64,000 bases of DNA, taken from the NCBI GenBank assembly GCA_963706575.1, contig CAVPNL010000001.1, forward strand, positions 160,001 to 224,000, read 5' to 3'. Position numbers: made by a program. Shown here piece by piece: positions 15,001-21,000 of the stretch. Numbering within the stretch: position 1 is the first letter of the stretch; every line of letters starts with the position of its first letter. Origin of the DNA: an uncultured delta proteobacterium (lineage in GTDB: Bacteria; Desulfobacterota; Desulfobacteria; Desulfobacterales; JAHEIW01).

Positions 15001-18000
15001 ACGATGTTTCTTTGATCAATGTATCACCAGTTTCGAGAATGCCTAATTTTGATTAAATAAGCCCATCCATTTGGGTATAAATGCGTATAAAATATTCCTG
15101 TTTTTTTAACCTAACGAACTGCTTCTTACATGGAATCAAATGCTCCTTCTTTTCTGATTCTTACGTTTTATCAATAAAATTTTATCCTGAGTTCAAAAGC
15201 ATGAAACCTTTTGAAATGAGGAGGGCTAAAAAATGGTAAAGTGGAAATATTTTAAACCAATCCTTTTTTTATTATTTTGTTTTGCTTTTTCATTCGCTCT
15301 ATTTGTTGTTGAGGGAGTAGCCGAAGAAACTGTTAATATAACGACTGATGATGGTCAAAAGCTCAAGAGCACATACTTTGCACCATCGACTCCAAATGCA
15401 CCGGGTGTCATTTTATTACCTGACACAAGATGTGATAGAATGAATTTCGGCTCAATCCCAAGAAAACTTAATGAAGCTGGTTTTGCTGTTTTGGCATTGG
15501 ATCTCAGGTACAAAGATATTATCGCTAAGGCAGGAAGTCGAAAGAAACAAATTAGCACAATCCAGAAGCAGGATTTAATGGCTCTTGTAAAATACGATAC
15601 AAAAAGCGCTATTAATCTCTTAACCGGCAAAAAGCAAGTAGATCCAGAACGTATTGCTCTAATCGGTACAAGTCTTGGGTCGAGAGTGGCTATAATAGCC
15701 GGAGTTGAATACGACTTAAAAGCATTGGTATTAATTTCACTTTCTGGAGAAGTTGCATTTCCGGATTATAAGCCTATCAAAGAGCTTTTGTCAGATTATG
15801 GAGAGAAACCAATTCTTTTCATGACAGCAGAAAAAGATTGGGGTGGAAACGGAAAAGCTGCTGAACACAATAAGCTATATTACGAATGGAAAAATGGAAA
15901 AAAAGAATTAAAGATTTGGTCAGGATCTGGACATGGAGTTGAAATTCTTAAAAAAAATGAATCTATTAACTTCGTAATTTCATGGCTAAAAAATAATCTC
16001 TAAAAATTGACTCAAATAAATGCCGGTAAAAAAACGTATCAGAAGTTTCTTTGCGTTTTTAAAATCTGCGATATCTCCGACAAAGTACAAATATCAGGTT
16101 GCTAAATTTTTTGTGATATTCGATTTTAATCACAACTCAGAAGGGTGAATCTGGGCCGATAGATTTGCCCTTTTTATTGCCTCAAAGCCGCATTTTTCGG
16201 GCCTATGATTTGACAGTAGATTTTAAAATGCGATACGGTGCAGATATCCATATCGTACCTGAAAAATTGCGATATTTGGGTTTCTCTCAATATACATGTA
16301 GTTTTGACGAAGCTGTATTTTGGCAAAATAATTTGAGTTTTTAGAGAATTTAAATTTTTGTGATTACATCTACATATCCTTAGTTTGGGGATATTTGTGA
16401 TATTTTAGGATATCAAAAGTTTTTGGGAAATTAGAAGTTCACAAATATTGTGTTATATAGAATCTACGATATTGAATATCATAGATTATACCTAATACAT
16501 GTTCGACAAACAAAAATAATTGGAGAGTAACAATGGCAAAAAATATTTCTTTTGGACATTTACTTATTTTATTATGCATTTTTTTTGTTTCGCCCCTTTC
16601 ATTATATGCTGCTGAGAAAAATATTGAATTATCGAAAGGCCAGAGTATTTATGTACCTGCCTATTCACATATATACAGCGGTAATCGGGAAAGTCCCTTC
16701 TTATTGACGGTGACATTGAGCATCAGAAACATTGATCCGAAGCATCAAATCAAAATCACCTTGGTCGATTATTACGAAACACAAGGTAAACTATTAAAAA
16801 AACATATAGATAAGCCAGTAACATTAAACCCATTAGAATCTTTACGCTATGTGATACCAGAAAGAGACAAAAGTGGGGGATCAGGCGCCAATTTTATCGT
16901 TGAATGGCAATCCGATAAATTTGTTAATCCACCCATTGTTGAATCAATAATGATTGGTACGCAAGCGCAACAAGGGATTTCTTTTACCTCTCGTGGTAAA
17001 GAAATTTATACCACTGAATAATGATGGGTGTCGAACAAGGCTTTTGCAGCGGAGCGCCAAAAGCCGCGCCCGCTGAAAAGCAACGTTAATCAAGATACCT
17101 TCAACATACGCAAGCTGTGGGTGAACCTTTGATATCTCTTATAGTATCTGTAAAAAAATTGTCACCGTAATAGGACAGATACTGTAAACGTATCAAAGGG
17201 CAAACTCCTTTTGAACTATCTGCAAAAATCATATGAATAAACGCTTTACAAAACCGTTGATATCTCCAACTAATCGGCAAAATTGATGGCTTTAAAAAAA
17301 CTGTGATATCATATGAGGATATCTGTAATTTCGGTGAAATTCAGATTATTTCAATGTATCAGTACTTTCAAGAACTCCCAATAATGGTTGACCAAATCCC
17401 ATTGATTTGGGTATAAACACATCTAATGAATCTCTGATTTTCCTATTCCAACTGACCTGTAGCGGTTCTCTATTTTCAGAATCGAATCCTCTTCCTGAAC
17501 TGGCTTTTACACTCCTCCTAAAGTCCACATAATGAGTTTATCTGTTTGAACCCGATAAAAGGAGGTGTAACATGCCCACATATGAATTTTACTGTGAAAA
17601 ATGCAAAAATTCTTTTAGTATTGTCCTTTCTTTTTCAGAATATGAAAAGAAAAAATACAGATGCCCAAAGTGTAAAGCCAAAAAATTGAAACAACAAATT
17701 TCATCCTTTCAGACGGTAACTTCAAAAAAAAGTTAACAGTAATTGAGATACTGTTCACGGAAACTGGTATTAATATCACAAGTTTCCAGTTTTGGTGATA
17801 TTCTCAATCGTTAACTGGCTGATATTTGGTTTTCTTTTAGACTATCACCACCAGCCGGAACCTTAAATTAGAAATATCTTGTACATCATTAAATATGAAA
17901 GGAGTAAAAACGATGAGTGAAGTCACGCAACTGGATAAAACTTTCCACATCATCATGAAGCGTATGGTGGAGACGGGGCAGGCACCGTACTATACGGAAA

Positions 18001-21000
18001 TAGCAAAAGAACTCGGTGTGTCAATGGAGGAGGGGAGAAAGGCGTTGCATGATCTTTTCTCTGCCAGAATTTACGGATGGCTGTATCCCAATACGGATTT
18101 CATTACATCTTTCGCACCGTTCAACAATTTGCCTACTCAATTTCGGATTACCATCGATGGTGAGCAAAAGTGGTTTGGCCAGTGAGCGTTTGAGTCGCTG
18201 GCAGTCTGCTGGCTTTTTCCGGGAAAAGTGGTTCAAATCGACACACCGTGTCTGGACTGCGGTGAACCCATGCAGATTCAAATCAAAGACGGCGAGCTGC
18301 TCAAGGTTGATCCGCAAGGCCTGATCTCATACGTTGCCGTTCCACTGAAGGAGTGGTTCCGCGATGAGGCCTATTCCTGAGCGACCATGACATTCTTCCG
18401 GTCGGAAGAGCATCTGCACAACTGGGCCCAATTTGATCCTGCAACAGAGGAAGGAATCATCCCGCTAAATGATCTGATCAAACTCTTTTCGGGCAGAATA
18501 ACCCGTCGGCGCTTGGATCCTGACTATTTTTCACACATGCGCGAATATGTCGCTGATTTTATGGTAACTCTTCAGGAAATTGGTAAGACAGGACCGTTCT
18601 GGTCGATAGAGCGCTCCTAATTAGCACCCAATTTAGGTCGACTGAATCCGGTTAGGATATTAGATGCGGGGTCAGTCTGAAAAACTGTGATACAGCTTCA
18701 ACTAATCAAAGATTTTTGAGGCCATTAAAATGTTGTGATATTTTGGTATATCACAAGTTTCCTGGTTTGGTGATACTCTCAATAAATCACAGGTCGATGC
18801 CAACGTTGGATACTGGCAAAAATAGTAGGTTTGAACTTGTGAAGCTCGGCCCAAAGGCAACAGTTTCTCTTTCGGTTGTGACAGGAAATAAAGGATAGAA
18901 GCAAAAATGATCGGACAGACAACACGATGGCTCGGCTGCATATACCTGATGTTGTTCTGGATCGGAGCTTGTTCAACCCTGCACCCTGGCTTGGACGATC
19001 AAGGTCTGCCTCAAACCAAGTATATCTACAAGGTGCCCGTGGAAACAGATGACGGATGGGAGACCTCTTCTCTTAATGATGCAGGGATTGATCCGAGAAA
19101 AATCACTGAACTGATGCAGAATATCCTTACTCTGCGGTTTGCAAATGTCCACGGAGTATTGTTGGTTCGCAATGGAAAATTGGTTTTGGAGGAGTACTTT
19201 AACGGATACACATTCAACTTCTCAGGCCCAGGATTCAGGGGTGAACCTGTCGCCTATGGGCGGGACCAACTTCATGTTACGGCTTCAGTCACCAAAAGTG
19301 TCACTTCGGCCCTGTTGGGAATTGCCATCGACCAAGGTTTCATAAGTGATGTGGATGAGAGAATGGCTGCCTTCTTCCCACAATACTCAGATAGAATAGA
19401 TGAAAAAAAATCCAGAATTACCCTGGAGCACTTGCTTACCATGACCTCAGGTCTCGAATGGAACGAAATTGGGCGTTGGTTCAGAGATCCCGAGTTTGAT
19501 CTGGTCAGGCTGTTTGTTGAGCCGGATCCAATCGAATATGTCTTGTCGAAAGATGTTGTTCATGAACCGGGTACATACTGGTATTATAATGGTGGGGGCG
19601 TGAACCTGCTGGGTGAAGTTGTCCGGAAAGCATCAGGACTAAGGATCGACGCTTTTGCTGAGCACTATCTCATGGCGCCCCTTGGGATCAGAAAATATGA
19701 GTGGGACCACATCAATACTGAGATCATTCATGCCTCAGGAAACTTGAAACTCTGCCCAAGGGACATGGCGAAATTCGGGCAATTGTTTCTGAATGGGGGA
19801 ACATGGAAGAATCGCCGGATTATTTCCGAAGCCTGGGTAACCAAATCCACTAAACCGATTATCTCAATTCCTTTGAACTCCTTGAAAAAGGTCATTGCCA
19901 AGGAGTACCTGGCTTGGACGGAAACAATGGGAGATCGCTATGGATATCTGTGGTGGGTGAAGACCTTTTGCGCAGACTTCGGGTGTGCGGAATCCTACTT
20001 AGCTGACGGTTGGGGCGGACAGAAAATTGTCATATTTCCAAGTCTAAATCTCGTAGTCGTATTTACAGGCGGGAACTATGCCACAGCTGAACCGGTTCAT
20101 GAGATGATTTCCCAATATATCCTTCCTGCGGTTCAATAGTACCCAAAAAGCAATTTTGGGATTTCCCTTTATGCTCTTTAAAAAAAAATTAGGGAGAATA
20201 AGCTATGGAGAAGCCCAGTTTGAGCATTCAAATCGCAGTTAGCTCGTTGGCGGGGCTGATTTTACTTAAAGCCGTATTGTTGGGTTCTCTTTGGGCCCAA
20301 GTCCAACCTCATCCCCCAGCAAGAGTGGGTCCCTTTATTGCAGCGAGCCTTAGCTTGACCGTTGTATCTATTCCACTCGTTTGGTGGCGCAATAAGATAG
20401 GATACACCACCTCGATAATAGTAGGATTACTTGGTCTAATATCATTTGGTCCTCATAAATTTTTTAGCGAATCAGCAGGCCAGATATTTCCAGCTATTAT
20501 AGTAGGCACAGTTCTTTCCGTAGTTTTGATAATCTCCTCTTTAGCGAGTTGGAGAACAAAGAAGTAAAATAAAATTACCTTATTAATTTTCTCTAATAAT
20601 CTATATTTAAAAGCATAACAACCAGCTGAAGCTGACAGGAAATAACCTCGTTGTTTTCGTTAAAGGTCGTGCAAGCTTCACATGCACTGGGCATGCAGCT
20701 TAGCCGTGACGTTTCCAACCTGTGATACCTCCAGAGACTGTCGAAAAAGGTATCAATTGAAGGTGGTTTTTCTATAAGATCTATAATTTTTTATCCCACT
20801 CAAAGCTCCAAACAATATCCCGCAAATATCGGCTATCCTTGTATTTTTTCGTTTGACAATGTCTAGTCCTATTGCTAGGTATAGATTAGTTTCTGATACA
20901 ACAACCAGGCAAATATGGAGTGGACAAATTAATGGCCAAATTTAAGCGTTATGATTATTCCCAAAAGGTTTTAATCCCGGTTTCATTAGAGGAGCAACTG

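Follow-up and report, generated by a model that had tools for sequence, protein, structure and literature searches.

The question raised by this locus is whether a reading frame interrupted twice by TGA encodes one protein and, if so, what chemistry such a protein would serve. The survey's finding was that two adjacent gene calls in the window (the whole stretch of 64,000 nucleotides analysed here, from an uncultured delta proteobacterium) form a single 235-residue gene distantly homologous to the organomercurial lyase MerB, and translation of positions 17913..18620 on the plus strand with TGA read as selenocysteine (Sec, U) agrees, giving 235 amino acids followed by a TAA stop. Inspection of the sequence reveals a ribosome-binding site, AAGGAG, at 17899..17904 (+), 8 nt 5' of the ATG at 17913, which favours that start over the ATG at 17895. 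The motifs WFGQ-U-AFESL and EAYS-U-ATMTFFRSEEH stand in the translation exactly as described, and the first Sec is indeed residue 91 (codon 18183..18185, +), whereas the second, previously numbered 155, is residue 156 (codon 18378..18380, +). The two paralogues said to carry two in-frame TGA codons each also exist: translation places their Sec residues at U92 and U157 (C18:86528-87223, minus strand) and at U126 and U201 (C6:39024-39770, plus strand). In a six-frame search of the whole genome the Pfam MerB family PF03243 matches these three paralogues only, all over the cut-off.

The codon TGA is an ordinary stop in this DNA, since 10 of the 30 open reading frames of at least 250 amino acids in the window end in it. 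That TGA is a usual stop here and yet both in-frame codons are kept in all 80 of the best related genome loci makes their presence more than chance. It could nevertheless be held that they are simply stops, that the locus is a decayed gene or three short reading frames and that the read-through is an artefact, a view which draws on the state of the databases: gene callers split or truncate the locus, fragments of roughly 90, 155, 63 and 77 amino acids appear in public collections, and a GenBank record named 'organomercurial lyase' stops at residue 155. Against this, the genome possesses the machinery for Sec insertion, a profile search having found selB (376.5 bits), selA (604.8) and selD (380.3), each over its cut-off, together with a tRNA-Sec (anticodon tca) at C3:141925-142022.

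The stop reading is also opposed by the RNA signals that follow each codon. A SECIS-like hairpin of six base pairs (GCUGGC/AGUCU/GCUGGC; 18197..18213, +) begins 11 nt past UGA-91, and a second of seven base pairs (UUCUUCC/GGUC/GGAAGAG; 18393..18410, +), which encodes part of the FFRSEE motif, begins 12 nt past UGA-156. Both agree with the bacterial SECIS model in each of the four constraints that passages of PMC13188914 set out, the energies narrowly so: the UGA-to-loop spacing is 17 nt for hairpin 1 and 19 nt for hairpin 2, and the energies are -7.9 kcal/mol (-8.3 in a loop variant with a seventh pair) and -7.7 kcal/mol respectively. Pairing is maintained in 98.5% of cells across 79 sequences for hairpin 1, with exchanges of U-G to C-G in five, of G-U to A-U in eight and of G-C to C-G in one, and in 97.6% of cells across 66 sequences for hairpin 2, the outer pair of which is U-A in 32, C-G in 20, U-G in eight and otherwise composed in six; the covariation score of hairpin 2 was equalled by none of 500 shuffles. 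Synonymous change is correspondingly suppressed. Among 81 sequences the mean normalised codon entropy is 0.30 in hairpin 1 and 0.22 in hairpin 2, as against 0.87 elsewhere, and the eight codons of the gene with the lowest synonymous variation all fall within the two hairpins (codons 95-98 and 162-165), the synonymous sites of codons 162-165 being almost without change.

The history of the two codons points in the same direction. The TGA pair, and the frame on both sides of it, is preserved not only in the 80 genome loci but in 72 of 80 metagenome loci, and the loci come from many phyla; five more metagenome loci are TGY/TGA. Site 1 is TGA in 73 of these 80 and TGC or TGT in six, all six more than 90% identical to TGA forms, while site 2 is TGA in all 77 loci that cover it. 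Cys is found in homologues at exactly the TGA columns: two close homologues are Cys/Cys, and among 43 remote full-length representatives both columns hold Cys in 40. There are also long-form Cys/Cys and Cys/Sec relatives (for example P0031 and P0050, the 155-residue database forms, L091 and L094), at most 57% identical, which share the length, the CxxC motif and an FRSEEH-like motif, differ in having Cys at site 1 or at both sites, and are named in their sources 'hypothetical protein' or 'organomercurial lyase', a function that is only putative; these relatives provide the Sec/Cys pairing by which genuine Sec positions are recognised. Each UGA is spanned, at 99% identity, by contigs from RNA libraries of two runs, which cover the gene in part and may contain DNA. 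Finally, the full-length translation yields a confidently folded AlphaFold2 model (pLDDT 95.6, pTM 0.90). The stop reading is contradicted by this evidence and we consider it exceedingly improbable; the gene almost certainly encodes a genuine MerB-fold selenoprotein with two Sec residues.

The family had been thought rare, but it is widespread. Matches occur in 38 of 400 other genomes of the phylum, and a collection with one genome per species holds relatives encoded in 238 stretches. In the Desulfobacterota-phylum sample of 401 genomes, 43 of the 45 strong matches have two TGA codons; the 13 genomes of the same order that it includes gave no match. A second clade, that of the C6 paralogue and only 24% identical, has two TGA codons in 26 of its 27 matches. 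Many metagenomes of sediments, marshes and estuaries contain the family, as do records that carry the labels Chloroflexota, Acidobacteriota, Poribacteria and Spirochaetes. The residue before the second Sec, Ser here, is Ala, Ser or Thr in relatives. Since the public records are either cut at one UGA or translated with the wrong genetic code, surveys of merB-like genes will under-count the family.

The distant homology to MerB is borne out by fold as well as by sequence. With C substituted for U, PF03243 scores 80.5 bits over residues 72-191 (gathering cut-off 27), and in a Foldseek search of the PDB all 11 matches with E <= 0.001 are MerB or MerB2, with TM scores of 0.47-0.69. The proposal that both Sec residues occupy catalytic cysteine positions holds likewise: phmmer alignment with the MerB chains of the PDB places U91, E94 and U156 on the columns of MerB Cys96, Asp99 and Cys159. 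Glu94 (codon 18192..18194, +), which in the alignment takes the place of the MerB proton donor, shows conservation of at least 90% among the 38 sequences of alignment A2, and 38 of the 43 remote representatives have D or E there; the column holds Glu in the clade of the gene studied and Asp in the C6 paralogue. A further motif, Cys113-Leu-Asp-Cys116 (18249..18260, +), is defined by alignment A2, in which both cysteines are invariant (38/38), and by the MerB alignment, in which Cys113 falls on the Cys117 column and Cys116 lacks a MerB counterpart. Both columns are Cys in 30 of the 43 remote full-length representatives. Judged by alignment, Sec91, Glu94, Sec156 and the CxxC pair would lie close together.

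How, then, does this protein relate to the known members of the superfamily? Its likeness to MerB (EC 4.99.1.2; PDB 3F0P, 3F2F and 1S6L; Foldseek E 3e-10, TM up to 0.69) extends to a ligand-acid-ligand triad on the same columns, but the identity is only 16-20%, the triad is Sec/Glu/Sec in place of Cys/Asp/Cys, and there are an additional cysteine in the CxxC motif, a C-terminal extension of about 45 residues and no mer operon or MerA partner. As far as alignment can tell, the geometry of the triad is kept and its chemistry changed. By sequence, MerB2 (PDB 5C17) is the solved structure that matches best (E 3.4e-07), and both its Cys columns align with U91 and U156; it has Ser at the acid column (CAIS, compared with UAFE here) and is without Sec. 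SaoL (NF040728), a MerB-like organometallic lyase and selenoprotein of the SAO locus, is alike in other respects. According to passages of the preprint by Haft and Gwadz (10.1101/2022.07.06.499078), it too has the MerB fold (PF03243), a Sec on the Cys159 column, an acid three residues past the first ligand, anaerobic hosts and database entries routinely truncated at UGA. The survey had allowed that a two-Sec form might already be described there; those passages present a one-Sec form only, in which the Cys96 column holds Cys and the Cys159 column a CU dipeptide. The protein studied here instead has Sec at both columns, the second preceded by Ser, and differs further in a longer C-terminal helical extension and the invariant CxxC. 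The earlier profile scores were reproduced: 44.3 bits for SaoL, under the cut-off of 140 that nothing in the genome reaches (the paralogues score 43.7 and 53.1), and 36.9 and 42.0 bits for the canonical MerB models NF033555 and NF009710 (cut-offs 200 and 193). Because these scores lie far under the MerB and SaoL equivalog cut-offs, function cannot be transferred by rule.

Genomic context gives little direction. The neighbours of the gene are a DUF3124 protein, a Zn-ribbon protein, a beta-lactamase-family protein and an IS transposase. The nine-gene SAO neighbourhood (ABC transporter, SaoE, SaoT and others) is absent beside the gene and beside its two paralogues, and no SAO-type neighbour recurs in 80 related loci, SaoL being the sole SAO family model searched. 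No mer operon lies beside the gene, and in this genome, which is 92% complete, no MerA exceeds the cut-off (best 344 bits, cut-off 454). Nor is any neighbour universally conserved across the 80 loci so as to fix a pathway; in 13-19 of them, and for most families in 13-14, the gene is followed by genes for CCG-domain, FAD-oxidase and C_GCAxxG_C_C proteins, and these loci are all Syntrophales-like. The genome does contain hgcA and hgcB. Across the phylum sample HgcA occurs in 19 of 38 family-positive genomes and in 102 of 362 others, a weak association that comes from a hand tally in which shared ancestry is uncontrolled.

To our knowledge MerB is the only enzyme fold known for Hg-C protonolysis, for which it uses two cysteine thiolates. 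On grounds of homology we consider it likely that the protein cleaves a carbon-metal(loid) bond, and we favour, with rather less assurance, a MerB-type carbon-metal lyase with a diselenolate site and organomercurials as its probable target; that organomercurials are the physiological substrate has, in our estimate, an even chance. The analysis establishes how the gene is built, its signals for Sec coding, the fold of the protein, the correspondence of the triad columns and the conservation throughout the family. We infer the lyase chemistry, the substrate and the release of product by analogy with MerB, and the scheme would run as follows. A cytoplasmic MerB-fold enzyme would have Sec91 and Sec156 as both of its metal ligands, each predicted to be inserted at UGA by means of its own SECIS hairpin just 3', with the proton-donating acid retained as Glu94. 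The two selenolates would bind an organometal cation, with methylmercury or another organomercurial the likeliest case; protonation of the carbon by Glu94 would release a hydrocarbon, and the metal would stay as a bis-selenolate until handed on, possibly by way of Cys113-x-x-Cys116 or to thiols or sulfide outside the protein. It counts against the proposed mechanism that an Hg(Sec)2 product is expected to be very stable. In its favour, selone mimics of organomercurial lyase, as described in part of a review (PMC11639659), cleave the Hg-C bond faster than their sulfur analogues.

The same two-Sec lyase could, in principle, act on another substrate, an organotin, an organolead, methylated arsenic or antimony, or a C-Se or C-Te compound. 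Its distance from the MerB equivalogs and the lack of MerA and of a mer operon, in the genome or beside the gene, would accord with this, as would the caution, in the passages of Haft and Gwadz concerned with the non-canonical metal site of SaoL, that organomercurials are not to be assumed (10.1101/2022.07.06.499078); the Glu of this clade and the Asp of the C6 clade would fit tuned specificities, and the occurrence of three paralogues in the same genome points to more than a single substrate. Set against these points, no neighbouring gene indicates metabolism of As, Sn, Pb or Se, Hg-C protonolysis is the one reaction characterised for the fold and a host with hgcAB plausibly meets methylmercury, so that we think another substrate unlikely. 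A more distant proposal is that the selenoprotein is no lyase at all and instead binds and hands over soft metals (Hg, Cu, Ag, Cd), or serves redox chemistry through a diselenide or selenenyl-sulfide in concert with the CxxC. The passages available of the same preprint note the binding of other heavy metals by MerB and its conversion to a copper-binding protein by a single residue change (10.1101/2022.07.06.499078); MerB2 is among the nearest solved structures, the CxxC is invariant and redox-family proteins are the neighbours in the 13-19 loci mentioned above. That redox neighbourhood is, however, limited to one lineage, and a pure binder would have no need of the acid so widely kept at the donor column, in A2 and in the remote representatives alike; we judge a non-lyase role quite improbable.

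For the favoured carbon-metal lyase the implications are several. Two selenolates at the two cysteine positions of MerB would constitute a new active-site chemistry for Hg-C protonolysis, and since this host, like half of the carriers sampled for hgcA, has hgcAB and is without MerA, the family is a testable candidate for the turnover of organomercury by anaerobes independently of the mer operon, and a potential link between selenium supply and mercury cycling. For annotation the family provides a simple rule, namely two UGA codons, each with a conserved GGUC-loop hairpin 3'. It is conceivable, though on balance doubtful, that the methylmercury demethylase still missing from the picture of anoxic sediments, one independent of the mer operon, is this two-Sec family with its Cys/Sec relatives. 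If so, that demethylase would be a diselenolate MerB-type lyase, among its carriers would be sulfate reducers, syntrophs and Chloroflexota, half of all carriers would be mercury methylators, judged by the carriage of hgcA among those sampled, and selenium ligands would draw organomercury off the sulfide and thiol ligands dominant in such habitats. Net methylmercury production in sediments would then hinge on an enzyme that requires selenium and that present gene catalogues overlook, its gene being truncated at UGA. What is routinely mis-annotated, in short, is a family widespread in sediment anaerobes that may degrade methylmercury or similar compounds.

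When TGA is read through, positions 17913-18620 of the window (+ strand) form one frame of 235 codons running to a TAA, with in-frame TGA at codon 91 (18183-18185, + strand) and codon 156 (18378-18380, + strand), and an AAGGAG site, read from the sequence, 8 nt 5' of the ATG at 17913 (+ strand). Translation with table 11 splits this frame into pieces of 96, 50 and 77 aa. The read-through translation agrees with the survey's finding of a single gene carrying two in-frame TGA codons and reproduces exactly the motifs quoted for both selenocysteine (Sec) sites; the second Sec, which had been numbered 155, is residue 156. 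A genome-wide reassignment of TGA was excluded because TGA is an ordinary stop in this genome, ending 10 of the 30 ORFs of at least 250 aa in the window.

The proposal of a distant homology to the organomercurial lyase MerB likewise stands. When Sec is replaced by Cys, Pfam MerB gives the protein 80.5 bits (cut-off 27), while its scores against the NCBIfam models for MerB (PRK13239, 42.0 bits, cut-off 193; a second MerB model, 36.9 bits, cut-off 200) and SaoL (44.3 bits, cut-off 140) lie below their cut-offs. A phmmer search of PDB sequences recovers MerB2 (5C17, E 3.4e-07) and MerB (1S6L and others, E about 6e-04), and the resulting alignments put the two Sec on the catalytic cysteines of MerB as had been claimed, U91 falling in the Cys96 column and U156 in the Cys159 column, with Glu94 in the Asp99 column and Cys113 in the Cys117 column. 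The AlphaFold2 model, computed from an alignment of 38 sequences, has a mean pLDDT of 95.6 and a pTM of 0.90. All 11 Foldseek matches to PDB structures at E <= 0.001 are MerB or MerB2 (E 3e-10 to 3e-07, TM 0.47-0.69), and those ranking after them are small winged-helix domains covering only some 60 N-terminal residues. The window protein is a MerB fold with Sec, Glu and Sec at the ligand, acid and ligand columns, an arrangement conserved across phyla; judging from the alignment to solved MerB, Sec91, Glu94 and Sec156 would lie close together in space.

The host genome possesses the machinery for Sec incorporation, with selB (376.5 bits), selA (604.8 bits) and selD (380.3 bits) all over their cut-offs, a tRNA-Sec with anticodon tca, and an in-frame TGA in its own selD. 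There are two selD loci, at C5:349796-350719 and C3:438965-439886, both with in-frame TGA, the latter copy being matched as two pieces (3-198, with one TGA, and 204-310). The DNA 3' of each TGA of the MerB-like gene is near-invariant, synonymous sites included. Across 81 aligned genes the least synonymous diversity of the whole gene falls in eight codons, 95-98 and 162-165, where mean normalised codon entropy is 0.30 and 0.22, respectively, against 0.87 in 64 other conserved degenerate codons. These stretches coincide with two hairpins, the first at 18197-18213 (GCUGGC/AGUCU/GCUGGC, a 6 bp stem with 98.5% of cells paired in 79 sequences) and the second at 18393-18410 (UUCUUCC/GGUC/GGAAGAG, a 7 bp stem with 97.6% of cells paired in 66 sequences), in which the loop begins 17 and 19 nt from the UGA, respectively. 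The GGUC loop and the 11-nt spacer resemble the corresponding features of the E. coli fdhF element.

In hairpin 1, U-G has become C-G in five sequences and G-U has become A-U in eight, and the paralogue on contig C18 of the same genome shows a two-sided change from G-C to C-G. The outer pair of hairpin 2, one side of which is base 1 of a Phe/Leu codon and the other base 3 of a Glu codon, is U-A in 32, C-G in 20, U-G in 8 and otherwise in 6 of the 66 sequences, and its covariation score was reached by none of 500 shuffles, related sequences being able to beat shuffles even without structure. The hairpins of a second paralogue, on contig C6, follow the same plan. A bacterial SECIS model with four constraints, among them a limit of -7.5 kcal/mol, is quoted in a 2026 review (PMC13188914), and both hairpins satisfy all four as quoted there, although their energies, -7.9 kcal/mol for hairpin 1 (-8.3 with a seventh pair) and -7.7 for hairpin 2, barely pass the limit. 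An Rfam scan of 17700-18900 at E <= 10 returned neither a SECIS model nor any other credible family. We have very little doubt that the window gene encodes a real two-Sec selenoprotein of the MerB fold.

Conservation of the two UGA codons points in the same direction. When 185,579 species were scanned, each represented by one genome, 238 stretches encoding relatives came to light, and in the best 80 of these (56-78% identity) both columns are TGA in every case, the two codons being separated by 65 codons in 79 and by 66 in one. Exchange with cysteine is seen at the first site. Among 80 metagenome loci related to a form with one Cys and one Sec, 72 are TGA at both sites and five have TGC or TGT at the first with TGA at the second; of the rest, one has TGC at the first site and the second off the contig, one leaves the second site uncovered, and the motif could not be located in one. 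Loci with TGC or TGT in the first position share more than 90% identity with TGA forms and retain the sequence of hairpin 1, which leaves them without value as a natural control for that hairpin. Sec in the Cys159 column is more constant than Sec in the Cys96 column.

Public protein records reflect these codons in a distorted manner. Among the best 120 database proteins of 129-412 aa, 63 stop shortly before site 2 and carry Cys at the first, 47 have Trp at both sites, the gene caller having read TGA under another genetic code, four are partial with Trp at one site, two are true Cys/Cys forms, one has Ser at site 1 and three are unclassed, proportions which are not frequencies because the length window omits the 90-aa pieces into which table 11 cuts two-Sec genes. 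Many public metagenome calls, P0004-P0053 among them, attain full length solely through TGA read as Trp, and Trp at both Sec columns would mislead any analysis of the active site that is based on alignments. When a profile of the family was run against 1.84 billion representatives, an E-value limit of 0.001 admitted 1797 proteins, one of 1e-10 admitted 522 and one of 1e-30 admitted 33. Fragments make up most of the top 150, and they have their ends at profile position 90 or about 155, or their starts at 93 or 159, the pattern left when a gene is cut at two UGA codons. In the alignment of the 43 longest, Cys occupies both columns in 40, Asp or Glu the acid column in 38, and both cysteines of the CxxC pair are present in 30. 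Records of the window family itself are truncated or unnamed, as in a 155-aa GenBank entry, 'organomercurial lyase'.

None of the 13 genomes of the same order in our phylum sample matches, which explains why the survey, looking among close kin, had judged the family rare; the 238 stretches of the species-wide scan overturn that judgement. Across 401 genomes sampled evenly from the phylum, the host included, 45 matches at E <= 2e-42 come from the host and 38 other genomes, 43 of them with two in-frame TGA, one with three and one with one TGA and a TAA, and weaker matches have one TGA or none. Record titles of the best 80 of the 238 loci name Desulfobacterales, Syntrophaceae/Smithella, Desulfarculales, Dehalococcoidia, Chloroflexia, Acidobacteriota, Poribacteria, Abyssobacteria, Spirochaetes and others. 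In a 301-genome sample of the phylum of one Chloroflexia carrier, 22 genomes match (including G677, flagged as unpublished), of which the starting genome alone has the two-TGA form, the others being 26-41% identical with one TGA or none; two loci from this phylum, L091 and L094, combine Cys at site 1 with Sec at site 2. The C6 paralogue, just 24% identical to the window protein, founds a second clade. A search of the same 401 genomes with it gave 27 matches spread over 26 genomes, and all but one of these matches have two TGA; the two-Sec state is thus present in at least two old branches. Metagenomes of sediment, marsh and estuary, sequenced in many studies, contain DNA near-identical to the window gene, and contigs from two metatranscriptome libraries, which cover parts of the gene and come from a library type that can hold DNA, span UGA-91 (18006-18318, two differences) and UGA-156 (18236-18417, one difference).

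The window gene stands alone, with a DUF3124 protein and a small Zn-ribbon protein upstream and a beta-lactamase-family protein, a small membrane protein and an IS transposase (DDE_Tnp_1_6, DUF772, DDE_Tnp_1; 20920-22437, 2.3 kb 3' of the gene) downstream. By eye, the C18 paralogue lies between a 399-aa MFS-type transporter-like ORF and a short HAD-type haloacid dehalogenase-like ORF (5282-6481 and 7283-7696 of extracted locus L009, minus strand), and the C6 paralogue 5' of a crotonase-like ORF. No universal neighbour emerged from 80 related loci and the window. In a Syntrophales/Smithella-like lineage (L014, L017-L023, L025-L030 and L034), 13-19 of the 80 loci, the count varying by protein family, have 3' of the MerB-like gene a redox-type set, arranged as an operon, consisting of a CCG-domain protein, a FAD_binding_4/FAD-oxidase_C protein, a second CCG protein with 4Fe-4S and a C_GCAxxG_C_C protein. 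This set may be a redox partner set, and a pathway assignment from it was dropped, as it is confined to that one lineage.

A dispersed 36-bp element with an inverted repeat, ATATCACAAGTT..CC.G.TTTGGTGATAYTCTCAAT, lies on both sides of the MerB-like gene (17773-17808 and 18748-18783), with further copies in the window at 14090-14125 and 14440-14477 and about 13 more on contigs C1, C2, C4, C6, C8 and C12. It precedes by some 60-325 nt the first same-orientation ORF chosen. Among the ORFs so placed are the MerB-like gene, the downstream beta-lactamase-family ORF (Pfam), a response regulator (Pfam) and its near-identical paralogue, a Zn-ribbon protein and, by likeness judged by eye, alpha/beta hydrolases, a caspase-like peptidase and another protein of the beta-lactamase family. 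One possibility is that the element serves a regulon as a common operator or promoter; inspection by eye showed no consensus for sigma-54 or sigma-70.

How such a protein might act can be drawn by analogy with the established mechanism of MerB. An R-metal cation would be held through its metal by the selenolates of Sec91 and Sec156, R-H would leave on protonation of the carbon by Glu94, and a bis-selenolate of the metal would remain. Compared with thiolates, selenolates have the greater nucleophilicity and are ionised to a greater extent at neutral pH; their price as ligands would be a very stable product, and the invariant Cys113-x-x-Cys116 pair, which MerB is without, is a candidate site for handing over the metal. 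In a review, selone mimics of organomercurial lyase are reported to split the Hg-C bond faster than their sulfur analogues (PMC11639659). By this analogy, cleavage of a carbon-metal(loid) bond is the probable activity of the window protein.

As to the metal, the host carries an intact hgcA-hgcB pair (C24:15392-16606, L096 2390-3607, and L096 2001-2291; minus strand), a call made with the HgcA motif and backed by the gene pair, the membrane domain and matches in 122 of the 401 phylum genomes at E <= 1e-40. The N-terminal motif of this HgcA is Cys-Cys, not Cys-Sec, and a second hgcA copy, at C6:512094-513305 and 91-95% identical, is matched as three separate pieces, which suggests a frameshift. 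HgcA occurs in 19 of 38 family-positive and 102 of 362 other genomes in a hand tally uncontrolled for ancestry, a weak enrichment among carriers that we set aside as evidence of function. Mercury is the most likely metal, because it is, to our knowledge, the only known substrate class of the MerB fold and because the host makes methylmercury; for organomercurials as the substrate proper we would give even chances. Several features leave room for other organometal(loid)s as substrates: the genome has neither a mer context nor a MerA over the cut-off (best 344 against 454 bits), its PF03243 genes number three paralogues, each with two TGA, and the acid residue differs between the clades, being Glu or Asp.

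Within the limits of what sequence can show, the evidence supports the survey's reading of the window gene. Among described families SaoL comes closest, and no member of it at or over the cut-off was detected in the host. SaoL, as described in the Haft & Gwadz preprint (10.1101/2022.07.06.499078), has its single Sec in the Cys159 column as part of a CU dipeptide, carries Cys in the Cys96 column and lies in a SAO neighbourhood of nine genes; the rows consulted in the tables of two reviews (PMC9312934, PMC13188914) give the one-Sec form as the sole MerB-like selenoprotein. A full-text literature search found no two-Sec MerB-like protein, an earlier mention elsewhere being possible. Because SaoL is a one-Sec protein with a SAO neighbourhood, the literature search gave no two-Sec form and the public records are truncated or unnamed, we rate the window family as a separate and widespread family of MerB-like selenoproteins in which both metal ligands are Sec.
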